The notes: generated from the letters alone by a model not told the origin. Shown: positions 36,752 through 52,082, counted from the first letter of the stretch. The stretch is 64,000 bases of DNA from an uncultured Acidobacteriota bacterium (GCA_963734695.1 CAVTIL010000015.1:465260-529259), one strand, 5' to 3'. Translations and numbers: made by a program.

Positions 36752-37821
36752 TCACTGAAAGTACGCGTCGACGGTTTCGATGGAGCCGTCGGCGCGGTAC
36801 TTCAACTCGGTGACCTTGATGTTGCGCAGGTGCGTCTGCCCTCCCGACAACTGCGCGTCGTGGTAGAAGAGGTACCACTTTCCCTTGAATTCAACGATGG
36901 AGTGATGATTCGTCCAGCCGAGGACCGGCTCAAGTACTTTGCCGCGGATGGTGAAGGGACCGTACGGCGACTTCGCCGTGGCGTACATGATGAAGTGCGT
37001 GTCGCCGGTTGAGTACGAGAAATAGTACGTCCCGTTGTACTTGTGCATCCACGACGCTTCGAAGAAGCGCCGCCCGTTGTCTCCATAGGTCAGCGGCTTG
37101 CCTGCTTCATCGACGAGCACACATCCTTTGGCGCCTCCGCGAGGCTGACCATGTCGTCGCCAAGCCGCGCAACCTTCGCGCTGAGTGCAGGCTGATCCTT
37201 TGCGGGATACTCATCCTTGGCGACATAGGTGCCCGTCGCCCAACGCTGCAGCTGCCCGCCCCAGATGCCGCCAAAGTACATGTAGTACTTGCCGTCAGCG
37301 TCCTTGAAGACTGCCGGATCGATGCTGTACGTGCCCTTGATCGCTTCGGACTGTGCCTTGAACGGACCGGCAGGCTTGTCGGAAACGGCGGCGCCAATCC
37401 GGAAGACGTCCTGCTTGTCCTTCACCGGAAAGTACAGGTAGTACTTCCCGCCCCTCTCGGCCGCGTCAGGCGCCCACATCTGCCGGCCTGCCCACGGCAC
37501 ATCCTTGATGTCGAGCGCGACGCCGTGATCGGTGACCGGGCCGCCGACCGCGTCCATCGAAAGCACATGGTAGTCGCGCATGGCGAAGTGGCTGCCGAGA
37601 TCATCAGGAGGAACGCCGGCGTCGATGTCGTGCGAAGGGTAGATGTAGATCTTGCCGTTGAAGACGTGGGCGGAAGGATCGGCGGTGTAGATCTCCTTGA
37701 TGAGCGGCTGTGTCAGAAACTTCGCCGGATCCGGTTTCTGGGCGGCCCCGCCCTGGCCACCCACCAGCGCCGCAGACGCGACAACAGCAACAACCACACC
37801 CGTGATTCCGCATCGGCACAT
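36752..37821 (-). CDS. glycoside hydrolase family 43 (beta-xylosidase/alpha-L-arabinofuranosidase-like). Apparent frameshift near 37110.
   Basis: N-terminal ORF 37090..37821 has a signal peptide plus a GH43 core (ADPSAHVFNGKIYIYPSHD, GGKYYLYF). C-terminal ORF 36752..37120 has YYFSYSTGDTHFIMYATAKSPYGPF and GKWYLFYH. The two overlap by about 30 nt. Confidence 0.7.
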
Positions 37822-39069: not shown

Positions 39070-39414
39070 TCACGGTCTGACAGCCATCCGCACCCGTTCG
39101 CTGTGGAGCTCGTGCAAGAGCCGCATGATGTTGTACGCCGTCAGCTCCACGAGCACCGTCGTCACCTTCGAATGAAGCGGATCGCTCAGCTCACCTTCGA
39201 CGTTCTTCATCGCCGCAACGAGGCGCTGCTCCTGCCCGGCGAGCTCCTGCTTCGAGACCACGCCGTCGGCCAGCGCGCTCGTGAAAGATTCCAGCTTGCT
39301 GACGCGTTCCTGGATTGCCGGGTGCTCCGCTTTCTCATCGAACCAACTCGTTCGTGCCACGAGATACCTCATTTCTTCCTTTTGCGCTGGGGCCCTCCGC
39401 CTCCGCGCGCTCAA
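39070..39414 (-). CDS. small alpha-helical hypothetical protein, last gene of the AAA-ATPase operon
   Basis: 114-aa ORF. A more likely start is the ATG at 39372 (MRYLVARTSWFDEK), preceded by AAGGAAG. No recognisable family. Confidence 0.45.
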   Translation of the reverse strand: MSARRRRAPAQKEEMRYLVARTSWFDEKAEHPAIQERVSKLESFTSALADGVVSKQELAGQEQRLVAAMKNVEGELSDPLHSKVTTVLVELTAYNIMRLLHELHSERVRMAVRP

Positions 39415-39518
39415 TGTTATCCGCGCTACGGCGAGACCTCGCCGGAGCCTTTGGCGTAGGCGGGCACCCCCAGCGCTCGCTCGTTCGCTCGCGCCGGCTG
39501 ATCGCTACGACTTTCCAC

Positions 39519-41288
39519 TCACAGATCTTTCACCAGCTGTTTCAGCGCGGTCAGCCGCTCCTGCAGCGCCGCGCGGCCGCCTGGCACGTCGGTCTTCTTG
39601 ACGATGAGCGGCGGCAGGAACTGCCGGTCGGTGCACTCGAGAATCGCCGCGGTTTCCTGGAGCTCGCGTTCGAGACCCTGCGTGGACGGCATGAACTCTG
39701 AGACCACTCGCGCCAGCGCTTCACGGGTCACGCGACTCGTGCCCGCGAGAATGGACGCGCGCCAGGCACGGCCGACCATGCCTTCGATGTCGGCGCCGGA
39801 CAGCTGGCCGAGTTGCGGAATAGGCGGCACGTCTTCAATCGCCAGCTGCGACCCGAGTTTCTTCGCGAGAATGACGAACATCTGGCGGACTTCTGCTTCC
39901 TCGGTCGGATAGAAGAGTGGGATGTGCACTTCCGCCCGGCCCTGGCGCTTGAGATCGATCGGCAGCAGATCGGGACGGGCCGTCAAAAGCATCCAGACAA
40001 TCCGGCCGCGGTACTGTGTGTCCCCCATCTGCGCGGCAATCATCGCGAAGACGCGGCTCGACGTTCCGGAATCGCCTTCGGCTTCGCGGCTCCCGAGCGC
40101 GGCGTCGGCTTCATCCACCACGACCACGACGGGCCCCATCGCGCGCAACACCGACAGTACGCGCTCCAGATTGCCCTCGGTCTCGCCGACGTACTTCGAG
40201 CGGAAGTTCTTGAGGATCACGCAGGGAACACCGATCTCGCCGCTCACGCACTGCGCGAGAAACGACTTTCCCGTTCCCACCGGGCCGCACAACAAGTAAC
40301 CCATCGGGAGGCTGTCGAGTGCGCCTCGTTTGAGGAGGGCCGCGTCCTCGCGGAGCCGCGCTTTCGCCGCCTCATGACCAACGACCGTATCGAGCGTCCA
40401 TCTGGGTTCGATGAATTCAAGCAGGCCGCGGCACTGACGCTCGAGCAGGCGCTTCTTCAAAGACCGGAACGCGGCCGCATCGAGGCGCTTGCCGCTCTCG
40501 CGGGCCGACTGAATGAGCACGTTGAGATCGGTCTGCGAAATACCCGCGGTCAGCTTGGCGAGCTCGGTGGCATCGAAGTCAGAATAGTCCGCGAGCGGAC
40601 GGTCCGTCGTCGTTGCCCTCACGAACGCCTCGCGCGTCTGCTCCCCGGGCAGCGGGACCTCGATGGTCGCCACGTGCGGATTGCCAGTGAGACGATCGCT
40701 CAGGTCGGCGAGCTTCTCATCAATCATCACGAACGCCATGTTCAAACGCTTCACGTGGGGACTCATGGCCCAGTTCAGCATCGTCACCAACTGAGAGGAC
40801 GCCTGCATGTTGAGCCGGCCAGGCTCGCCCGCGGGGAACACATACGAAGCCTGATCCATGATCAGCGCGAGACTCTGACGATCGTCTTCGGCCGCCATGA
40901 TATTGGCCCGGACGAAACGATCCACGAGGGTAAAGGTCGCGGCCGGATCCTTCGAGAGCGCGCTGAGGTCGCCCAGCTTCTTGTTGGCGAGCGTCACCAT
41001 CTCCTTGAGACGTTTTTCATCGCGCCCCGCGAACGCGCGCAACCCGCGGCCCAGGTCGTAGTGCAGCACCAGCGACCACCGGCCGAACAGCTGCTCGGCC
41101 AGGAACTCCGCCAGGACGCCGTATGGCATGCCATCGTCGGCGCCGATGCGGAAGAGGTCGTACGTGTTTCCGCAGAGAACGAACGCGGCCGTTGTTCCGG
41201 AGAAATAAAGGTCAGCCAGCTGCGACGCCCACGGCGGAAACCACACCGGCAGGTCGGTTGGGCGTCGAGGTCGAGACTCAGGCATCAT
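39519..41288 (-). CDS. classic-clade AAA+ ATPase with ~330-aa N-terminal domain of unknown function
   Basis: 589 aa. C-terminal AAA module: Walker A LLCGPVGTGKSFLA, Walker B VVVVDEADA, sensor-1 LLTARP, arginine finger region DLKRQGRAEV, and a classic second region of homology SGADIEGMV. The start overlaps the upstream gene by 11 nt. Confidence 0.8.
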   Translation of the reverse strand: MMPESRPRRPTDLPVWFPPWASQLADLYFSGTTAAFVLCGNTYDLFRIGADDGMPYGVLAEFLAEQLFGRWSLVLHYDLGRGLRAFAGRDEKRLKEMVTLANKKLGDLSALSKDPAATFTLVDRFVRANIMAAEDDRQSLALIMDQASYVFPAGEPGRLNMQASSQLVTMLNWAMSPHVKRLNMAFVMIDEKLADLSDRLTGNPHVATIEVPLPGEQTREAFVRATTTDRPLADYSDFDATELAKLTAGISQTDLNVLIQSARESGKRLDAAAFRSLKKRLLERQCRGLLEFIEPRWTLDTVVGHEAAKARLREDAALLKRGALDSLPMGYLLCGPVGTGKSFLAQCVSGEIGVPCVILKNFRSKYVGETEGNLERVLSVLRAMGPVVVVVDEADAALGSREAEGDSGTSSRVFAMIAAQMGDTQYRGRIVWMLLTARPDLLPIDLKRQGRAEVHIPLFYPTEEAEVRQMFVILAKKLGSQLAIEDVPPIPQLGQLSGADIEGMVGRAWRASILAGTSRVTREALARVVSEFMPSTQGLERELQETAAILECTDRQFLPPLIVKKTDVPGGRAALQERLTALKQLVKDL

Positions 41289-42201
41289 TCCGGAGCACCC
41301 CGCGTAGATCGGATTCGAGAATGGCCGGCGGCTCCTCGAGCTGTTCGCCGAGCCCGGTGAGGTGCTGAAGCTCGCTCACGGCCTTTTCGGTCTGCCGCAT
41401 GCTCTCCGCGGCGGAATCAACCTGGCTGCTCAGGAAGTCCGGATCCTGGCGGTTCACGGCCATTTCAGCGAGCGCCTGAATCTTTCCTTCGATGCGGTCC
41501 AGTTCGACGCTGACGAACTCGGCGTTCTTCCTGGCCTTCCCGAAATTGTCGAGACGCAGCTCGCCCATCGCAATGCTGTCCTGGAGCGAACGCACGACCC
41601 GGTCGTCGCCTGATGCCTGCGCCGCGGCCAGGCTCTTTCGCAGCTCTTCGAGGCGGCCGGAGATCTCCTGGCCATCCATGGTCTTCAGGAACCGATCGAG
41701 GGCCGTTTTCGACATCAGCAGTCGAAGGAAGAGCCAGAGCAGGCGATCGAGGCCCGGCGTACGAATGTCTTCCACCGACGACGCTTGAGTCCCCGCCGCG
41801 CCGCGAACGCCGGCGGCGATGCCGCGCATTTCGAGACACCGCGCGTGCAGGCGCTCGAAGCGGGTCCGCGCCTCGGCGGGCAACCCGCCCAACATCGTCA
41901 CTAGCGACACTGCGGGTGCGGCAGGAACGTCGTCGAACGGGCGCGATCGGGTGGCGTGCATCTTGGCATCGATCGCCCCGCGAAAACGTGGCATCGAAAT
42001 CAGACCGGCGAGATAGGCCAGTTCACCCGCGCCTACGAGCGGCAGCAACACCGGCGCCAGCGGTGTCAACGCTGCCGCGGCGGTTCCGCCGAGGAAGAAC
42101 AGCAAATTCCATCGAAACAGAAACGCTTCCTTGAGGTAGGTGCGCGTGTCCGCGCCCTGAGGCGGCACGTTCGGCGGCAGGCTATCGGGCGCCTTAACCA
42201 T
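41278..42201 (-). CDS. membrane protein with two N-terminal TM helices and a ~170-aa C-terminal coiled-coil region
   Basis: 307 aa. TM1 LLFFLGGTAAAALTPLAPVLLPLVG and TM2 LAYLAGLISMP, then heptad-rich segments (LEELRKSLAAAQASGDDRVVRSLQDSIAMGELRLDNFGKARKNAEFVSVELDRIEGKIQALAEMA). The start overlaps the upstream ABC ATPase stop by 8 nt. Confidence 0.6.
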   Translation of the reverse strand: MVKAPDSLPPNVPPQGADTRTYLKEAFLFRWNLLFFLGGTAAAALTPLAPVLLPLVGAGELAYLAGLISMPRFRGAIDAKMHATRSRPFDDVPAAPAVSLVTMLGGLPAEARTRFERLHARCLEMRGIAAGVRGAAGTQASSVEDIRTPGLDRLLWLFLRLLMSKTALDRFLKTMDGQEISGRLEELRKSLAAAQASGDDRVVRSLQDSIAMGELRLDNFGKARKNAEFVSVELDRIEGKIQALAEMAVNRQDPDFLSSQVDSAAESMRQTEKAVSELQHLTGLGEQLEEPPAILESDLRGVLRNDA

Positions 42202-43094
42202 CGCCAGCCCGAGTCGATTCGCACAGATTGTCGATGATGTCGCGGATCTCGAAGACGTATCGCATGAACTCCGGCTCGCGCTGCATCTCTTTCGGCGGCC
42301 GGTCGGGGGACGGGACCTCCATCTGCTTCAGAATCGTGCCGGGCGCCGACGAGAAGATGTAGACGCGGTCCCCCAGGTACACCGCCTCCTCAATGGAGTG
42401 TGTCACGAAGAAGACCGTCGCCTGCGGCCTCGCGCCAGAGATCGACCAGCAGCGCCTGCATGTGGAGCCTGGTGGTCGGATCGAGCGCACCGAACGGTTC
42501 GTCCATGAGGATGATGCGCGGCGAGAGAATCAGCGTCCGGGCGATCGCCACGCGCTGTCTCATGCCGCCGGACAGCTCGCTGGGATACTTCGTGGCGTCC
42601 CGCTTCACATCCAGTCCGACCTTGGCAATCCACTCGCGCGCGCGTTCGCGGCGTTCCGCTGCAGGCACGCCACGACATTCCAACCCGAACGCCACATTGT
42701 CTTCGACGGTGCGATTGTCGAACGACGTGTAGTCCTGGAAGACCATGCTTCGATCGGCGCCCGGGCGTTCCACGCGATTGCCCGCGACCAGCACGGTTCC
42801 CTCGGTCGGCGGATGATGCGGCCGAAGCCCGGCGATCAGACGGAGCACTGTCGATTTCCCGCAGCCCGACGGGCCGAGGATCGCGATGAACTCGCCCTTA
42901 TGCGGCAGGTCTGGCACTGAGAACGTGATGTCGCGAACGATGGTCACGCTGCCGAAGCGCTTCGTGACGTTCTTGAATTCGACGACGTTGCCAAGAGCGG
43001 CGGGTGCGGCCTGGGGATCGCTCACGTCAGTCCTCGACCGCACGATACGGGAACAACCCGCGCTGGAACCAGAAGAGCACGCGGTCGATGCCAT
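42194..43094 (-). CDS. ABC transporter ATP-binding protein (NitT/TauT family, SsuB/TauB-like). Apparent frameshift near 42450.
   Basis: Frame 42390..43094 has Walker A GPSGCGKST, Q-loop, signature LSGGMRQRVAIA and Walker B IILMDEP. The C-terminal helical region with H-loop (TVFFVTHSIEEAVYLGDRV) is in frame 42194..42490. The true start is probably near 43030, just after the permease stop. Confidence 0.7.
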
Positions 43095-43848
43095 ACGCGA
43101 GCACGCCGATGATCATCAGGATCAGGATGATGTGCTCGGACAGGCCTCGCCGCTGGCTTGCCATGAGGAGATATCCGAGCCCGTGCTCGGCGTTGATCAG
43201 CTCGGCGAGCATGATATAGCCGAAGGCCAGCCCGAACAGGTGCCGCAGGCTGTTGTAAATGTCGGGGAGCGCGAGCGTGACGAGCACCTTCAGCACGACC
43301 TGGTGCGCTTTGGCGCCAAGCGTTTGCGCGGTTTCGACGTACCGATCCGGTACGCCGACGACTGCAGCCACCGCGTCCGAGTACACGAACGGCACGCACG
43401 CGATGAAGATGAACATCACCTTCTGCGTCTCGTCGATCCCGAACCAGAGAATCGTCAGCGGGATGAGTGCGGCAACGGGCAGATTGCGTCCGAAGAGCGC
43501 GATCGGCGCGCCGGCTGCTTCAATCACCCGCCACGCGCCGGCGGCAATGCCGAGCGGCACGCCGACGAGCGCCGCCAGGCCAAACCCGACCAGTACCCGT
43601 TTCAGCGTGGCCGCGATGCTCTGCAGCAACGCCCGTTCCTTGAACAGGCTGGGGAAGCTTCGAATCACTTCGCCCGGACTCGGCAGAATCACCGGCGAGA
43701 TCCAGCGATCCTCGGATCCCAGTCCTGACGTCGCGATCCACCACACGAGCACGATGACGCCGACGGCCAGTGCGCCGACGAGCTGCCGCGTCATTCGCGG
43801 CGGCGAGATGCGCAGCGCCAGGAGTTCGGGTTTGGCGTCGCCCGGCAT
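43027..43848 (-). CDS. ABC transporter permease (NitT/TauT family)
   Basis: 273 aa, 6 TM helices. Binding-protein-dependent permease loop (TAQTLGAKAHQVVLKVLVTLALP). Intact. Confidence 0.8.
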   Translation of the reverse strand: MPGDAKPELLALRISPPRMTRQLVGALAVGVIVLVWWIATSGLGSEDRWISPVILPSPGEVIRSFPSLFKERALLQSIAATLKRVLVGFGLAALVGVPLGIAAGAWRVIEAAGAPIALFGRNLPVAALIPLTILWFGIDETQKVMFIFIACVPFVYSDAVAAVVGVPDRYVETAQTLGAKAHQVVLKVLVTLALPDIYNSLRHLFGLAFGYIMLAELINAEHGLGYLLMASQRRGLSEHIILILMIIGVLAYGIDRVLFWFQRGLFPYRAVED

Positions 43849-45578
43849 TTACTTCGCGCCCGGCGCCGCTTCCGCCGGGTACACCTTCACCTCGACGCGT
43901 CGGTTCTTGGCGTTGTTCTCGGGATCGGACGGGTCAGCCGGGCGATCCCATCCGATCCCGGCGGTTGAGAACTGATTCGGCTGCAGCGACGGGAACTTCC
44001 GCACGATTGCTTCCTTCACGGAATTCGCGCGGTTCAACGACAGTTCCTGGACCAGGCTCTTCGGCACCGACGCCTTCATCGACGCGTCGGTATGTCCTTC
44101 GATCACGATCCGCGCCGCCCCGTACTGCCCTGCTAGCTTGCCAATCTCCTCGACGACGAATCCTACATTCGGGTCGTACAGCTCTTCGGTGTCCTTGCCG
44201 CCGGCGTCGCGCGTCACCTTCTTGTTGAGATCCCACGAGTTGGGGAAGAAATGGATGACCACGGTCTTGGTCAGGATCTCGTCCTTCTCGCCTTGAACCG
44301 TTCCGGCTGACGCCGGCGCGAAGTGGACGTCGTACTCGTTCTTCTGCGACGCGTATTTCGGCTCGGAGGCCAGCTTCTGGATGATGGAGAAATCCATTAC
44401 CTGATCGAACGGTGTCTGCTCGGTCACCGCGTTGATCCGCTTGTAGAGGAAGTACGCGTGGACCAGGTGCGCTCGAAACTGGTCGGGTTGTTTTGATTCA
44501 GGAAGAAGTCGCGGTTCTCGGCGTAGTTGGTCGAGTGCGCATCGCCGAGCATCCCGAGCGCGTCACCTTCAGGAATCGAGTAGCCCGCGGCCATCAGCTT
44601 CGCGACCTTCTGCTTCGAGTCCTGCGACTTCAAATCCACCATGGCGTCGAAAATGCCACGGGTGATCCCTTCCATGATGTCGGGATTGTCTTTGGCAAAG
44701 TCGGCGCGCGCGAACCACACGTCCGCGATCAGCTTGTTCGCCGTCGCCGTCGTCACGAGCATGTGATTGCCCTTGACCTTCTCGAGGTTGTAGATGTCGG
44801 GCGCCCAGCTGACCACGCCGGCAAGGCGCTTGTCGGCATTGAACGCTGCGGCCGCCTGGAACGCATCCTGGGTGAACTTGAACTCGATTTCTGCGGGCTG
44901 AACGCCCGCGTTGATGAGCGCGTTGAGGATGAAGAAGTGTGACGGCGAGTTCTGAGCCAGCACCACCGTCTTGCCGCGCAAATCGGCCATCGTCTTGATC
45001 GCGTCGCGGACGACGATGCCGTCGCCGCCGTTCGACCAGTCGACCTGCTGATACACGCGAGGCATGACGCGCGAGTCCTTGCGCAGGCCTTCGAGAAAGA
45101 GCGGGATCATGTCGAGCGTCGCCCAGCCGATGTGCAGGTTGCCGGCCGCGTACGCGTCGCGCATCACGATCGGATCGTCACTCAGCACGAGCTCGACCTT
45201 GAAGTCCTTGCCGCCGGGCGTCTTCCACAGCTTGCCGGGCTTGAAGCCGTTGTTCGCGAGAATGATCGGGCTCCAGCCGGCCCACACGTTGATGCCGAAT
45301 CGCACCGTGCGGTCGGCCATCGGCTTGTAGCTGGAGATGCCCTTGACCTCCGGCAGACGTGTCGCCGCGACGTAGTTGTATTCCTTGACCGTCGTGATGC
45401 CGGCGCTGTCCGGCGCTTCGGCGCCGCTCTGCATCTTCTTCAGCTCGTCGGCCGAGAATTGACCGGTCTGCGACTTCGGTCCAATCGCGCCATACCGCCA
45501 GAGCGCGAGACCGACGAGACCGAGCACCATCACCAGGACGGCGACGTAGAAAGTGGGTCTGGGCTTTCCGTTGGCCAT
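43849..45578 (-). CDS. NMT1/SsuA-like periplasmic substrate-binding protein fused to a C-terminal OmpA-like domain. Apparent frameshift near 44440.
   Basis: 384-aa SBP frame (TM anchor FYVAVLVMVLGLVGLALW, NMT1-like core) ends artificially in ...FERTWSTRTSSTSGSTR*. The adjacent frame reads through (...HAYFLYKRINAVTEQTPFD...) into the 192-aa ORF, which carries an OmpA-family motif set (IVIEGHTDASM...LSLNRANSVKEAIV...NRRVEVKVY). Confidence 0.55.
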
Positions 45579-45615
45579 GAATCCATGCTCCTGTCAGCTG
45601 CCCATGGAGGCTGCA

Positions 45616-46462
45616 TTACACTCTTCTCCGAGGGCTTCGCCTCTCGGATCCCAACACGCGCTCTGCGCGCGCTTCGTCGGCGCGCTCCTGCGCTGTTTGG
45701 ATTAATTCGTTTGTTTCTCGGTGGCTTTTTCGGCCGCGGGTCCGAGATCCTTCGCCGTCTGGCGCGATCGGCGATGTCTCGGGTGACTTCAAGCCCAGTT
45801 CGACCTCGAAGTCGGTGAGCGCCTGCTCGGCGAGCTGGCCTTGCATGCGCTCCTCGGCCTGGATCTCGGCGATGCCCTTCTGCGACAGATCCGCCGCCAC
45901 GCGCACCTTGCCGCGGTTCTGATCGATCTTCTGCTGGATGACGCTCTCGATCTCGCCGAAGTCCGTCGTCAGGTTCATGTCGAACGTCTCGGAGAGCTTG
46001 GCGATCTCGGCCTCGGCCGCGCTCATCTTCAGCTCGGCGTCGTACTTCTGGATCTTCTCGCGCAGCTCGATCAGCTTTTCGTTCGCGTGCTGGATCTTCT
46101 TCAGGCTGTTGCCGTAGGCGGTCTCGTGCATCTGGAGCTGGCCTTCGTTGGCCGCCAGCTCCTCCTTCGGCCTTCTGCAGCTCGAGCGCGAACTTTGCCG
46201 CGGTGGTGCGATCGCCGGCCTTGAGGTAGGCCTTCGTCTCCGCTTCGAGCTTCTGCACGTGCGACTTGTTGGCGGAGACCTGCCGGGTGACCCGCTCGAC
46301 GAGCCCGCGGTACTGCTCGAGGCCGGTGCGCCCTTCCTTGAGCTGCTCGACGGCGCGGTCGTACTCGTATCGCATCTGGGCCACCGGATCGGCCTCCCAG
46401 AAGATGTTCGCGACCTTGTTGATCTGCGCCACGAACGCGGACCAGAACTTGTGGAAAATCAC
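45616..46462 (-). CDS. pspA: PspA/IM30 (Vipp1) family protein. Apparent frameshift near 46150.
   Basis: N-terminus MIFHKFWSAFVAQINKVANIFWEADPVAQMRYEYDRAVEQLKEGR...AKFALELQKAE matches the PspA helix-1/2 pattern. Charged coiled-coil remainder (LKKIQHANEKLIELREKIQKYDAELKMSAAEAEIAKL...) is in the 45616..46131 frame. Confidence 0.65.
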
Positions 46463-46487
46463 GGAGGCTCCTTCTGAACACTACGAG

Positions 46488-47268
46488 TTACTTCCCGGCG
46501 GGTTCCCGCTCGCCGCCGGCCGCCTCGGCAAGAATCTTGCCCTGGTAGATACCGTCGAGCGCCGTGCGCAGCTCGACGCCGGTTCCGGCGCCGATCACAT
46601 CGCCGCCGACGTCCTTCAGAAACGCGAACTTTTCCGGGCTCGTATCGAACGCGACGAAGTAGGTCTGCACGCCGCCTTCACTCTTCCGCCAGATGTCGCG
46701 CGCCACGTCATCGGGGCTGCGGCCGTTCGTGTTCTCGCCGTCGGTGACGACGAGCAGGTACTTGCGGAACACGCCGGCGCGATACAGGTCTGGACGCGCC
46801 TCGCGCATCGCCTCGCCGATCGCCGTGCCGCCGCCCGGCCGCGGCAGGTTCGCCAGCGTCGAGCGAACCGACGCGCGATCGTACGGCTGAATCGGCCGCA
46901 GGACGTGGACGCTGCTCGAAAAGCTGTAGACGCCAATCTTGATTGGAAAGTCCGGCCGGCGGGCGATGAACGCGTCGGTCGCGTCGAGCATCGCCTCGAG
47001 CGCTTCCTGCGCGACGACGTACTTCGGTCGCGAGTCGCCGGGCGGCGTTCTGCTTCATCGATCCCGAGGTGTCGACCAGGATCGCGACCGCGGCACCGAG
47101 TCCCTCTTCGACTTCGGCCTGATACGGCGCGTCGGACTCCGGAGCGTCGCGGGTCGAGGCCTTGGACCTGTCGCGGTGTGCCGCCGGCTGGCAGGCCAGA
47201 AGAAGCGACGGCAGCAGGATGGCGAGAGCCAACCCCCGTGTTCGTCCAGCGATGGAGCGGGTGTTCAT
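46488..47268 (-). CDS. von Willebrand factor A (vWA) domain lipoprotein. Apparent frameshift near 47040.
   Basis: Lipobox LAILLPSLLLAC. MIDAS motif AILVDTSGSM in the N-terminal frame. YLLVVTDGENTNG and vWA C-terminal half in frame 46488..46991. Confidence 0.6.
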
Positions 47269-47329
47269 GCCCGGTGTGGGGGAGTGTATCGTCGCGGTCT
47301 CATGCGATCAAGCACAGGAAGAACCCTCA

Positions 47330-47782
47330 TCACGCCCTCGACGGGCCCAAGTCCGAGGTGCAATTCGGACAGCGGGACGCTTTCGCGGGAATGCGCGAAA
47401 TGCAGAACGGGCAGTCCTTCAGGTCCGGCGCCGGCGGCGCGGGCGCCGGGGCTTTCATGCGGTTGATCTGCCGGACCATCAGAAAGATCACGAACGCCAC
47501 GATCAGGAACTCGAGCAGGGTATTCAGAAAGATGCCGTAGTTGATGGTCGGCGCGGCGGCTTTCTGCGCGTCCGCGAGGGACGCGTACGCTTGTCCGTTC
47601 AGTGCCACGAACAGGTTCTTGAAGTCGATGCGCCCGATGACCATCCCGATGGGAGGCATGACGATGTCGTTGACCAGCGAGGTCACGATCTTGCCGAAGG
47701 CCGCACCGATGATGACGCCGACCGCGAGATCCACCACGTTGCCGCGCGCCGCGAAATCACGGAACTCTTTCATCATGGACAT
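47330..47782 (-). CDS. mscL: large-conductance mechanosensitive channel MscL with C-terminal CxxC...CxxC zinc-ribbon extension
   Basis: [20 protein letters not shown] (TM1 signature), then TM2. Tail [22 protein letters not shown]. 150 aa. Confidence 0.85.
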
Positions 47783-47952: not shown

Positions 47953-48015
<63 letters not shown>

Positions 48016-49261: not shown

Positions 49262-49320
49262 CCGTCCAATGCCTTAGAACGCAGTTTTTGAACGGTCTGC
49301 GGACGGAGATATCGCAAAAA

Positions 49321-49710
49321 ATGACGAATCGACCTCATAACGACCTCAGCCGCCGAGAGCGTCAAATTATTGACATCCTCTATGCGAACGGCCAGGCGAC
49401 CGCCGCTGAAGTTCAAGCGGCGCTCCCCGAACCGCCCAGCTACTCGGCAGTCCGGGCGATGCTTCGGATTCTCGAAGAGAAAGGGCACGTCAGGCACGAA
49501 CAGGACGGCCCTCGCTATATCTACCTGCCGACGCTCGGCCGGGACAACGCCCAGCGCTCCGCGCTGCATCACATGTTGAAAACCTTCTTTGACGGTTCTG
49601 CCGAACAGGCCATCTCCGCCCTGCTGGACGAGTCGTCGCAGAAACTTTCGGACGCTGAGCTCGATCGGCTCGCCAGGCTGATCGACCAGGCGCGGAACGC
49701 CGGAGCCTGA
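49321..49710 (+). CDS. blaI: BlaI/MecI/CopY-family penicillinase-repressor-type transcriptional regulator
   Basis: MTNRPHNDLSRRERQIIDILYANGQATAAEVQAALPEPPSYSAVRAMLRILEEKGHVRHE is a winged-helix Penicillinase_R signature. About 130 aa. The stop lies 2 nt before the BlaR1-like gene. Confidence 0.8.
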   Translation: MTNRPHNDLSRRERQIIDILYANGQATAAEVQAALPEPPSYSAVRAMLRILEEKGHVRHEQDGPRYIYLPTLGRDNAQRSALHHMLKTFFDGSAEQAISALLDESSQKLSDAELDRLARLIDQARNAGA

Positions 49711-49712
49711 TA

Positions 49713-52009
49713 ATGAGCATCTTTCACTTCTTGCCTGTGGACTCCGGCACCTCATGGCTCCCCGTCGCCAGCGTCGTCCTGAAGGCCACGCTGATGCTGG
49801 CTGCCGCCGGCGCCGCCGCGTTTACTCTCCGTCGCAGGTCTGCCGCGCTGCGCCACATGATCTGGACGCTCGCGCTCGCCGGGGTTCTGCTGCTGCCCGT
49901 ACTGTCGATTGCGTTGCCGAGGTGGCAACTGTCGTTGGTGAAGATCGAGAAGGCAGCCTTCGCTCCCGCGCCGTGCGAAGGCTGTCTCGCCGAAGCGGCC
50001 GTGGCCGCGAAGGCGGACGCACAGTCAGCAACCCGCAGCCAGGAGTCGGAGAGCAATCGCCACCAGCCAATAACCAGAAGCCAGCAGCCAGAAGCCAGCC
50101 CTTCGACTCGCGCTGCCACCGACGCTCGCTCAGGGCAGGCAGCCAGCCTGTCATGGTCCACGATTCTGCTGGTGACTTGGATGGCAGGCGCGCTGTTGAT
50201 CCTCGCGCGCCTTGCCGCAGGGATCGTCGCGGTCCGATGGATGTCCCGGCGAGCCGAGCGCGTGACCGACGCGCCATGGCTGGCGCAGGCTCGATCGCTT
50301 GCGGCGGAGCTCGGGATCTCTTCACGGATCGCGTTTCTGCGCAGCAGTGGCGCATCCATGCCGATGGCGTGGGGCATCCTGCGCCCTGCCGTGTTGATGC
50401 CGGCGGTTGCCGACGAGTGGCCGGCCGAGCGGCTGCGGATCGTGCTGCTCCACGAGCTTGCGCACGTCAAGCGGCGCGACTGTCTCACGCACATGCTCGC
50501 GCAGGTCTCGTGCGCGTTGCACTGGTTCAATCCGCTGGCGTGGATGGCCGCCCGGCACGTTCGCCAGGAACGCGAACGCGCATGCGACGACCTGGTTCTC
50601 GCCGCTGGCACACGCGGTCCGGACTACGCCGATCAGCTCATCGAGATCGCACGGGTGATGCGCTCCGGCCGATTCCCCGCGATCATGGCGGGAGCGAGCC
50701 TGGCGATGGCGCACCGCTCGGAGCTCGAAGGCCGTCTCATGGCCATCCTGGATCCGAGCGTTCCTCGAGCGCGCGCTTTCGCGCGTGCGCGCCGCGGGAG
50801 CCACGTCGCTCTTCGCGCTGGCGGTCATGCCGCTGGCGTCAATGCAGCCCTGGACGATCGTCTCCACGCCTGGGGAGACACCCGCGCCAGCGGCCGTTCA
50901 GCAGAGCGCGTCTGCCGTCACGGCTCAATCGCCGACGCCCACGCCCACGCCAACGCCAACGCCGACGCCGACACCGTCAGATTCGTCCGACCGCTCGCAC
51001 CGGATCGACGCGGATAGCGCGGCTCACAGCGCGAGCGCGGCCGCGCAGTCGGCCGTTCAAAGCGCGGTGCAGAGCGGAATCCAGAGCGGGGTTCAAGCCG
51101 GCGTGCAGTACGGGGTCGCCGGCGCGATGGCGGGCGTGCAGGCCGTAACTGGCCACTTCGACGTCGGGACCCTCAATGCGGCTATCAACGCAGGTTTGGA
51201 CGCAGCCGCGCAGGCCGCGGCGAATCCGCATGACAACGGCGGCCGTCCGAGCAAGGCGGATCCCAGGACCGTTGCGGCCTTGACGGCGGCACTGAAGGAC
51301 ACAGACAAGGACGTTCGCGAAACCGCGATGCACGCGCTCGTGCAACTGCGCGATCCAAGTATTTTCGATCCGCTCGTCCAGGCGCTGTCTGATGGCTCGC
51401 CTGATGTGCGCGAGCAGGCCGCGTTCGGGCTCGGACAGCTTCGCGATCCGCGCGCCGTCGAACCACTGATCGGCGCGTTGAAGGATCAGAACGCGGACGT
51501 GCGCCAGCAGGCGGCATTCGCGCTCGGGCAGATTCGCGACCACAGTGCGGTTCCTGGCTTGAGCGCCGCGCTGAAGGATTCGAGCGACGACGTGCGCGAG
51601 CAGGCAGTCTTTGCGCTCGGGCAGATTCGCGACCCGGCGTCGGTCGATGCCCTCGTCGTGGCGGTGCGCGACACCAAGGCCGACGTCAGGCAGCAGGCCG
51701 TGTTTGCGCTCGGGCAGATTCGCGATCGGCGCGGCGTCGAGCCGCTCATCTCTGCCTTGAAGGATCCGGCTGCCGACGTGCGCGAGCAGGCCGCGTTCGC
51801 GCTCGGGCAGATTCGTGACCCCCGCGCGGTGGAACCGCTGGTGATTGCGCTGAAAGACAGCGTCTCTGATGTGCGCGAGCAGGCCGCGTTTGCGCTCGGG
51901 CAGATTCGCGACCCACGCGCGATCGACGGTCTGACGACGGCGCTCAAGGACTGCGAGCGCCGACGTTCGACAGCAGGCGGCGTTCGCGCTCGGGCAGCTG
52001 GCTCGTTGA
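49713..52009 (+). CDS. BlaR1/MecR1-like M56 peptidase membrane sensor fused to a Pro/Thr linker and C-terminal HEAT-repeat domain. Apparent frameshifts near 50790 and 51965.
   Basis: 4-TM M56 domain with HELAHVKRRD (HExxH) in ORF 49713..51017. The frame switches to ORF 50785..52023, which has a (PT)n linker and about 8 repeats of ALKDxxxDVRxQAAFALGQIRDPRAVEPL. The final repeat is only in frame (DVRQQAAFALGQLAR*) after a shift near 51965, giving a stop at 52009. Confidence 0.55.
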
Positions 52010-52013
52010 TTTC

Positions 52014-52082
52014 TGATTGCTGATTGCTGATTGCTGATTGACTCGGCCCAATCAGCAATCAGCAATCGACAATCAGCAATCG
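52014..52082. repeat. inverted array of heptamer repeats: (TGATTGC)x4, 9-nt loop, (GCAATCA)x4; potential ~30-bp hairpin
   Basis: tgattgctgattgctgattgctgattga ctcggccca atcagcaatcagcaatcgacaatcagcaatcg, read directly after the BlaR1-HEAT stop. Confidence 0.7.

Follow-up and report, generated by a model that had tools for sequence, protein, structure and literature searches.

A PspA-linked gene cluster with a tandem AAA+ ATPase in an uncultured Acidobacteriota bacterium as a candidate membrane-maintenance module

The stretch of DNA analysed here (the window) comprises 64,000 nucleotides (nt) from an uncultured Acidobacteriota bacterium (GCA_963734695.1 CAVTIL010000015.1:465260-529259), and the locus in question occupies its positions 39070-47782. 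According to the table of open reading frames (ORFs), nine consecutive genes lie there on the minus strand, encoding in this order MscL, a vWA protein, PspA, a solute-binding protein, a permease, an ABC ATPase, a protein with two transmembrane (TM) segments, an AAA ATPase, and a small helical protein. The locus is a further member of an operon family that has already been described computationally. The reading preferred here, to which a probability of roughly 0.55 is assigned, is that it encodes one trans-envelope, PspA-centred membrane-maintenance module that has its own unfoldase and is coupled to a periplasmic sensor or importer. This reading is favoured because of the co-inheritance of the genes across phyla, their recurrence in shuffled order, the gene overlaps, the combination of a dead first domain with a complete second domain in the AAA ATPase, and a predicted helix layout of the TM protein that fits ESCRT-III, as well as because Ravi et al. 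2024 arrived on their own at this proposal of function and the binding protein ProX occurs in archaeal ESCRT loci.

The published description (Ravi et al. 2024, mSystems 9:e00847-23, PMC11237479; main text, Text S2.2, and Table S3) ties bacterial PspA to a protein with two AAA domains, the N-terminal copy of which is inactive. An operon composed of PspA/TM-Snf7/inactive-AAA+AAA/ABC/PBPB-OmpA is exemplified there by OGG56892.1 from Candidatus Handelsmanbacteria, the gene preceding the tandem AAA is described as a divergent TM-anchored Snf7, and ATP-dependent membrane remodelling comparable to that by Snf7/Vps4 is proposed. From PspA to the ATPase, the present locus has the very genes of the published operon in the order given in Table S3, and it shares with that operon both the two-domain ATPase (inactive N-terminal, active C-terminal AAA) and the fusion of a periplasmic binding protein with OmpA. 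An earlier reading of the window from its sequence alone (the sequence-only reading) had regarded this gene combination as an undescribed system, whereas the architecture is already listed in that paper. Unlike the published account, in which the vWA lipoprotein (the paper's “X(s)”) and a small protein of 96 amino acids (aa) are not named, the present survey finds that both recur, and they appear to be recurrent components that can be added to the described family.

Conservation of the gene cluster

The genes of the locus, after repair of the interrupted reading frames considered below, are as follows.

47330..47782, minus strand: MscL mechanosensitive channel, 150 aa (Pfam MscL, E=4.8e-43)
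46488..47268, minus strand: vWA-domain lipoprotein, 259 aa repaired (VWA_2 1.1e-13, VWA 2e-11)
45702..46462, minus strand: PspA/IM30, 252 aa repaired (Pfam PspA_IM30, E=2.8e-10)
43849..45578, minus strand: solute-binding protein of the NMT1/TauA/SsuA type with C-terminal OmpA, 576 aa repaired (Pfam NMT1, Phosphonate-bd, and OmpA on two fragments)
43027..43848, minus strand: ABC permease of the NitT/TauT family, 273 aa, intact (Pfam BPD_transp_1)
42194..43025, minus strand: ABC ATPase, 276 aa repaired, GTG start at 43025 (Pfam ABC_tran 1.6e-30)
41278..42201, minus strand: helical protein with two TM segments, 307 aa (AlphaFold2 (AF2) model and hydropathy/charge profile)
39519..41288, minus strand: tandem classic AAA+ ATPase, 589 aa (Pfam AAA on residues 331-457)
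39070..39360, minus strand: three-helix protein, 96 aa (start from tblastn and from orthologue lengths of 94-99 aa)

The co-directional arrangement on the minus strand was recognized in the sequence-only reading, in which eight genes were counted; its eight junctions imply nine. The junction distances given there are reproduced by the ORF table, where they amount, from MscL to the small gene, to 61, 25, 37, 0, -68, -8, -11, and 104 nt. However, several of these raw values change once the gene boundaries are corrected. The overlap of about 60 nt before the ABC ATPase disappears, since comparison with relatives places the start of this gene at 43025; the gap of 37 nt after PspA becomes one of ~123 nt, the true PspA stop lying at ~45702; and the small protein, taken before as 114 aa, is most likely 96 aa long with its start at 39360, which leaves ~158 nt between it and the AAA ATPase. 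The overlaps of 8 nt between the ABC ATPase and TM-protein genes and of 11 nt between the TM-protein gene and the start of the AAA ATPase gene are as given in the ORF table.

The distribution of the cluster was surveyed in a scan in which each GTDB species was represented by one genome and an alignment of the ATPase N-terminal domain served as the query, and relatives of this domain were found in at least 468 GTDB species. The best 80 loci of the scan were retrieved and searched by tblastn with the module proteins; the counts for close relatives given here are over 82 close loci. Soil metagenomes are rich in close relatives of both the ATPase and the TM protein (85-99% and 78-100% identical, respectively, among the best 120 matches), and the named ones belong to the Vicinamibacterales. 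The contigs of two relatives, L001 and L002, carry the same block with an intact PspA of 252 aa and an intact binding protein of 576 aa; L002 lacks MscL, and its flanks differ from those of L001 on both sides.

In every close locus that is long enough, the order PspA, binding protein-OmpA, permease, ABC ATPase, TM protein, AAA ATPase is kept on the same strand, and this fixed order extends to Solibacteraceae, a metagenome-assembled genome of Marinacidobacterales, Myxococcota, Longimicrobia, and Gemmatimonadota. The comparison of gene neighbourhoods that had been recommended has thus been carried out, and the module order is kept across Acidobacteriota, Gemmatimonadota, and Myxococcota. The TM protein is encoded directly upstream of the ATPase in 82/82 close loci, in agreement with the coupling of the two that had been suggested before: it is an upstream partner that never varies and is translationally coupled. 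In most Vicinamibacterales loci, as well as in L065, L076, and L078, the vWA gene lies ahead of PspA, and the small gene is found 3′ of the ATPase in 60 of the 82 loci, being missing in Gemmatimonadota. As for MscL, which the sequence-only reading included among the components, it is confined to the seven closest loci (L001, L003, L004, L005, L008, L009, and L019), occurs neither in L002 nor in more distant loci, and is an accessory neighbour outside the conserved module.

The family defined by the ATPase N-domain contains 1256 clusters at 50% identity (E<=1e-3), and a distant clade with ~35% identity in this domain was surveyed in 80 metagenome loci searched with iterated hidden Markov models. 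Among the 36 distant loci with at least 1 kb of upstream sequence, the TM protein is directly upstream of the ATPase in 28, and PspA takes this place in 2 more. PspA is directly downstream of the ATPase in 10 of 46 loci, and among the Pfam families encoded next to the ATPase, PspA_IM30 alone is seen repeatedly. The occurrence of the AAA/TM/small-protein trio elsewhere without PspA, vWA, or MscL and with another defined function had been named in advance as an observation that would speak against the sequence-only reading; in the distant clade, PspA is present in 13 of the 14 long loci. In these neighbourhoods, PspA is the most constant partner of the ATPase pair, even at ~35% ATPase identity.

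Several architectures are seen in the distant clade. Besides the gene order of the window itself, there are loci with the order TM protein, AAA, PspA, binding protein-OmpA, (Tat-signal flavin amine oxidase), vWA; loci with the order vWA, PspA, binding protein, followed after other genes by TM protein and AAA; and loci with the order PspA, AAA, small protein. The vWA gene occupies other positions in L125, L129, L142, L149, and L155, and the small gene follows the ATPase (as PspA-AAA-small or AAA-small) in L088, L095, and L106. The survival of the same parts through rearrangement is strong evidence that they work together, with the vWA and small proteins as genuine accessories, and the suggestion that the locus forms one module gains support from both the conserved order and the retention after rearrangement.

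The same comparison bears on the explanation that separate units, namely, MscL, vWA-PspA, an importer of the sulfonate/taurine type, and the TM/AAA/small-protein trio, became adjacent by chance. The gaps of ~123 nt between PspA and the binding protein and of ~158 nt between the AAA ATPase and the small protein could hold internal promoters, and MscL is not conserved with the remaining genes. Scans of the locus for promoters, terminators, and sigma-54 sites returned nothing above background, the promoter and terminator scans giving no evidence either way. Nevertheless, six genes are co-linear across several phyla and are retained together after rearrangement in the distant clade, whereas the flanking genes vary between loci, as in L001 and L002; the joint recurrence of the module genes in >100 loci is far beyond chance. 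Such conservation largely refutes chance adjacency, which is considered highly improbable.

Protein components

The AAA ATPase is built of a first domain (D1, residues ~1-325) and a second domain (D2, residues ~326-540 of 589). As a single sequence, D1 matches the lid region of p97, Cdc48, Rix7, and PAN, and as a 20-sequence profile it matches D1 and D2 of p97/Cdc48 at 3e-9, the matched part running from Walker B as far as the lid. The position of Walker A in D1 is occupied by VLCGNTYD, which is not a Walker A motif, and D1 therefore cannot bind nucleotide in the usual way. D2 contains the motifs GPVGTGKS and VVVDEAD, the pore loop KYVGE, and KRQGR, so that the earlier assignment to the classic clade of AAA ATPases stands, with intact Walker A and B, the KYVGE pore loop, and an arginine finger. 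By these motifs, D1 is degenerate and dead, and D2 is catalytically complete.

The likeness to Vps4 proposed in the sequence-only reading is not borne out, as the active domain is closest to VAT/Cdc48/p97. The best PDB matches of D2 are VAT, Cdc48/p97, AFG2, NVL, and NSF (E 1e-31 to 1e-26), and Vps4 is not among the 60 best. In NCBIfam, the ATPase scores 49 bits for CdvC vs. 80 bits for CDC48, the latter score (TIGR01243) standing against a cut-off of 803. An MIT-like fold, which had been proposed for inspection in the N-terminal 330 aa, is not found there: Pfam gives no MIT match in the ATPase, and the N-terminal 325 aa form a degenerate classic AAA domain instead. Only ~30 residues precede D1, and the family consensus contains a short conserved LPxW...WA motif. 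Thus, the protein resembles Cdc48/p97/VAT in the best matches of both D1 and D2 and in the tandem D1-D2 layout, but it differs from them in lacking the double-psi-barrel N domain, in having no Walker A in D1, and in its bacterial, membrane-associated gene context.

Another view of this ATPase would make it the centre of an anti-phage or conflict system of the IetA type, since PADLOC IetA models match it at 3.3e-17 and NCBIfam IteA at 9e-15. However, these matches span the generic AAA domain alone and are weaker than those to Cdc48 and PAN, neither an IetS-like protease nor any other defence gene is present in the cluster, and within Vicinamibacterales the proteins show 85-99% conservation and keep their synteny, as is usual for housekeeping-like genes. 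Generic AAA similarity, the lack of a protease gene, absence from defence islands, and stable synteny have led to the rejection of a defence system, and this possibility is given almost no credence.

The TM protein of 307 aa comprises, from the N- to the C-terminus, an amphipathic helix, a TM hairpin at ~31-70, two further helices, a cytoplasmic all-helical domain, a PP-containing linker, and a conserved PPxIL...DL tail. Its AF2 model has a predicted local distance difference test score (pLDDT) of 74 overall and ~90 for residues 146-285, with helices at 149-197 and 200-251 (a hairpin of ~50 residues), 254-267, 269-282, and 299-304; the last third of the protein is acidic, with a net charge of -7. 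In the model, the helix layout together with the acidic C-terminal third would fit an ESCRT-III protein with a tail motif. At the level of sequence, however, such a relationship is not detected. No family is assigned to the protein in Pfam, NCBIfam, or PADLOC, 17 diverse members of its family give no Snf7 or PspA match even at E<=10, and its profile has no match among PDB sequences. A Foldseek search with the model has a best E of 0.12; CdvB2 comes sixth and CdvB thirtieth (E 0.4-0.8), in the company of pore-forming toxins, SMC coiled coils, and BAR domains. By hhalign, a 125-sequence profile of the TM-protein family gives a probability of 1.4% with the cognate PspA family, and the family gives 1.5% with a six-sequence Snf7/CHMP alignment (each sequence being verified as Snf7 by Pfam), as compared to 32% for the PspA family with Snf7 as a control; these alignments are shallow (Neff 3.4-4.6), and a remote relationship could escape them. 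Thus, regarding the expectation of ESCRT-III-like features in this protein, the helix layout of the AF2 model would be compatible with it, whereas homology is established neither by profile comparison (hhalign 1.4% and 1.5%) nor by structure comparison (best Foldseek E 0.12). This is the other point of difference from Ravi et al., whose divergent-Snf7 assignment is not reproduced at the available alignment depth; the Snf7 identity of the TM protein would accordingly be drawn from the literature and not from the present results.

The small protein is modelled by AF2 as three helices (14-31, 37-57, and 60-94) with a pLDDT of 68, and no family is assigned to it in Pfam, NCBIfam, or PADLOC. In the search for an MIT-like fold suggested for this protein, Foldseek gave no significant match: the MIT domain of VPS4B has the top TM-scores (0.57/0.64), at E=1.9 and with a low-confidence model, and an MIT-like fold may be treated as a lead only. 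Identity with PspAA or PspAB of Ravi et al. was considered and rejected, PspAA having a beta-sheet and the small protein being all-helical. Many members of this family bear the JGI label “predicted transcriptional regulator”. In three distant loci (L088:9816-10106, L095:3478-3807, and L106:2325-2747), the small protein directly follows the ATPase, with PspA present and the TM protein absent. Its occurrence therefore goes with that of the ATPase and not with that of the TM protein, and it is a lineage-variable accessory of the former.

In the repaired PspA, the PspA_IM30 domain is recognized over residues 1-216 with 40.6 bits, above the cut-off of 33.9, and the orthologues in relatives are annotated as PF04012. 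The vWA protein has a signal peptide, an LLLAC lipobox, and the DTSGS (DxSxS) motif of a metal-ion-dependent adhesion site, and this lipoprotein is a recurrent accessory component.

The binding protein retains an N-terminal membrane anchor, which is followed by an NMT1/TauA/SsuA-type domain and an OmpA-like domain; because of the anchor and the OmpA-like domain, it can, as predicted from its domains, bridge the inner membrane and peptidoglycan. Among PDB sequences, the former domain matches TauA (6ssy, 6.8e-12) and the latter Omp38 (3.6e-10), and in NCBIfam the protein has matches of the urea, SsuA, and TauA types, all under the cut-off. The permease resembles SaoP, TauC, and SsuC in NCBIfam, and cluster members are named NitT/TauT permease by their sources; for the binding protein, the permease, and the ABC ATPase alike, the family scores remain below the family cut-offs. 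TauABC/SsuABC (NitT/TauT) importers are nevertheless the best family for all three proteins. The window differs from these importers by the membrane anchor and the peptidoglycan-binding OmpA domain of the binding protein, and some loci of the family encode the binding protein but neither the permease nor the ABC ATPase. In L129 (9742-11214) and L142 (9535-11001), a flavin amine oxidase of ~490 aa with a Tat-type signal is encoded between the binding protein-OmpA and vWA genes, and neither a permease nor an ABC ATPase is found nearby. Because this oxidase adjoins the binding-protein gene in the absence of transporter genes, these loci hint at an amine or polyamine as a possible ligand of the binding protein, or at a role for this protein in sensing and not in transport.

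Proposed mechanism and competing explanations

In the proposed mechanism, the TM helical protein would recruit a hexamer of the AAA ATPase at the cytoplasmic face of the inner membrane, the likely contact being its conserved acidic C-terminal PPxIL tail. Driven by ATP, the ATPase would extract, unfold, or recycle subunits of the PspA assembly and possibly also subunits of the TM protein. Such an action would provide turnover to an otherwise static polymer of the ESCRT-III type, as Vps4 does in archaea and eukaryotes. The binding protein-OmpA and the vWA lipoprotein, together with the ABC transporter in those loci that have one, may report or correct an envelope or solute condition, and the periplasmic half of the module would thereby set the place or time of remodelling.

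The comparison with ESCRT-III/Vps4 (CdvB/CdvC) has two sides. On the one hand, a polymer-forming protein that belongs to the ESCRT-III superfamily, here PspA, is encoded together with a classic-clade AAA ATPase equipped with a pore loop for threading, and a helical protein with a C-terminal tail motif is encoded directly upstream of the ATPase, as in the archaeal loci described by Makarova et al. On the other hand, the ATPase of the window has no MIT domain, is a tandem AAA protein with a dead D1, and is closest to VAT/Cdc48; the locus has no ESCRT-II-like winged-helix gene, the partner protein is membrane-integral, and periplasmic components are coupled. According to Makarova et al. 2024, ESCRT systems occur only in archaea and eukaryotes, with the ABC-type binding protein ProX in some archaeal ESCRT loci, and a 2025 review (PMC7619361) states that bacteria have the ESCRT-III relatives PspA and Vipp1, whereas a Vps4-like disassembly ATPase appears to be absent.

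A likeness also exists to the classical Psp system (E. coli pspF-pspABC) and the Lia system (B. subtilis liaIH), which have a PspA/IM30 effector and an integral membrane partner, and the partner encoded here could serve as an anchor like LiaI or PspBC. However, the AAA protein of the window is a classic-clade unfoldase and not a transcription activator of the NtrC type. PspF, PspB, PspC, LiaI/F, and two-component genes are found neither among the cluster genes nor in the annotated neighbourhoods of relatives, and no sigma-54-like site is present upstream.

A bolder form of the preferred reading, which is put forward tentatively and remains doubtful, would see in the locus a functional counterpart of ESCRT-III/Vps4 that exists in bacteria of several phyla and is assembled from other parts. 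It would consist of a Cdc48-like unfoldase, a TM protein recruiting it by a tail that resembles an MIT-interacting motif (MIM), and, in some lineages, an MIT-like adaptor of 96 aa; PspA polymers would be disassembled, and the binding protein and vWA protein would provide periplasmic gating. If this were true, the link between ATPase and PspA would be one that has already been proposed, and what is new would lie in the vWA component, in the tail motif, and in the small protein's function as an adaptor.

According to the main rival explanation, the ATPase may instead serve the quality control of membrane proteins. In this case, the TM protein would be an adaptor, the Cdc48-like ATPase would extract damaged or mis-assembled inner-membrane or periplasm-facing proteins (the anchored binding protein or the permease, for example), and PspA would only seal the membrane meanwhile without being the substrate. 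The fact that the ATPase is closer to segregases (VAT, Cdc48/p97, and AFG2) than to Vps4, the absence of an MIT domain, the failure to demonstrate that the TM protein is homologous to ESCRT-III, and the commonest gene order, which places the transporter genes between PspA and the ATPase pair, are all in its favour. However, PspA is the most constant partner, and there are loci of the types PspA-AAA(-small) and TM-helical-AAA-PspA without an adjacent permease or ABC ATPase, so that the transporter is not a universal client, other clients being possible. On this evidence, quality control is judged unlikely.

Several considerations weigh against the PspA-centred module. The ATPase has no MIT domain, and its substrate could be the transporter or some other membrane protein. 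The operon structure is deduced from gene spacing and conservation only, and no experimental work on any member of the module was found in the literature. Moreover, if the frameshifts described below were real, the copy in the window would be non-functional.

As for the significance of the locus, the placement of PspA beside a dedicated unfoldase makes the question of PspA polymer turnover directly testable, and the periplasmic parts suggest a way to couple the envelope state to cytoplasmic membrane remodelling. Prior publication of the idea limits its novelty; later reviews overlook the published prediction.

Interrupted reading frames and neighbouring sequences

Five single-base indels break four genes of the cluster (vWA, PspA, binding protein, and ABC ATPase), and in the ORF table the interrupted genes are seen as two overlapping pieces in different frames. 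The indels were located by three-frame translation, by tblastn with the intact proteins of a relative, and by DNA alignment to two relatives; in comparison with intact relatives, they are the following.

vWA gene, minus strand: extra C near 47043
PspA gene, minus strand: extra C at 46169 and extra C at 45762
binding-protein gene, minus strand: missing C near 44457
ABC ATPase gene, minus strand: extra C at 42426

One-base edits at these places restore clean proteins of 259 (vWA), 252 (PspA), 576 (binding protein), and 276 aa (ABC ATPase), the lengths of which match those of relatives.

If the frameshifts were real, the locus would be a decaying pseudogene cluster and the module would be inactive in this organism. 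Five indels within ~5 kb, hitting four genes, are consistent with decay; the indels are also present in the public record, and the protein collection holds the intact products of the 729-kb contig and not the repaired ones. However, every indel changes a single base where one to three C stand in a row, and outside the indels the frames are clean and free of stop codons, with proteins 84-91% identical to those of relatives. The interleaved permease, TM-protein, and ATPase genes are intact, a GH43 gene outside the cluster also looks split, and a related long contig carries indels of its own. Decay is considered improbable. The five indels are likelier, though not proven, to be assembly or sequencing errors, because all of them are one-base changes in short C runs with otherwise clean frames, and because of the split GH43 gene, the indels in L001, and the 729-kb source contig.

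The GH43 glycoside hydrolase gene (36752-37821, minus strand) is seemingly split into ORFs of 243 aa and 122 aa in different frames; in a relative, it is a single gene of 356 aa, and the split thus agrees with the presence of indel errors in other parts of the contig. In L001, a related contig of 181 kb, single-base indels are found near the window-equivalent positions 46854 and 41740, and they truncate the called vWA gene (106 aa) and the called TM-protein gene (189 aa).

At the upstream end of the locus, the C-terminus of MscL (47330-47430) contains CPFC...(9 residues)...CPNC, and this tail looks like a zinc-ribbon appended to the channel. Between the MscL gene and a GSDH-like gene, a perfect heptanucleotide tandem repeat, (GCGAACC) x 8.7 with 100% identity, occupies 47955-48015 and is not found in the syntenic relative L001; a site of slippage or contingency is conceivable, as is an artefact of the assembly. 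Further away, on the plus strand (49288-51017), the gene for a BlaI/MecI-type repressor (140 aa) lies ahead of one for a membrane protease of the M56 BlaR-like type, and this pair is also present in L001. Finally, a plus-strand ORF of 412 aa at 50785-52023 has a (TP)n tract and many tandem units of ~31 aa (...DVREQAAFALGQIRDPRAVEPL...), which look like repeats of the HEAT/PBS type.

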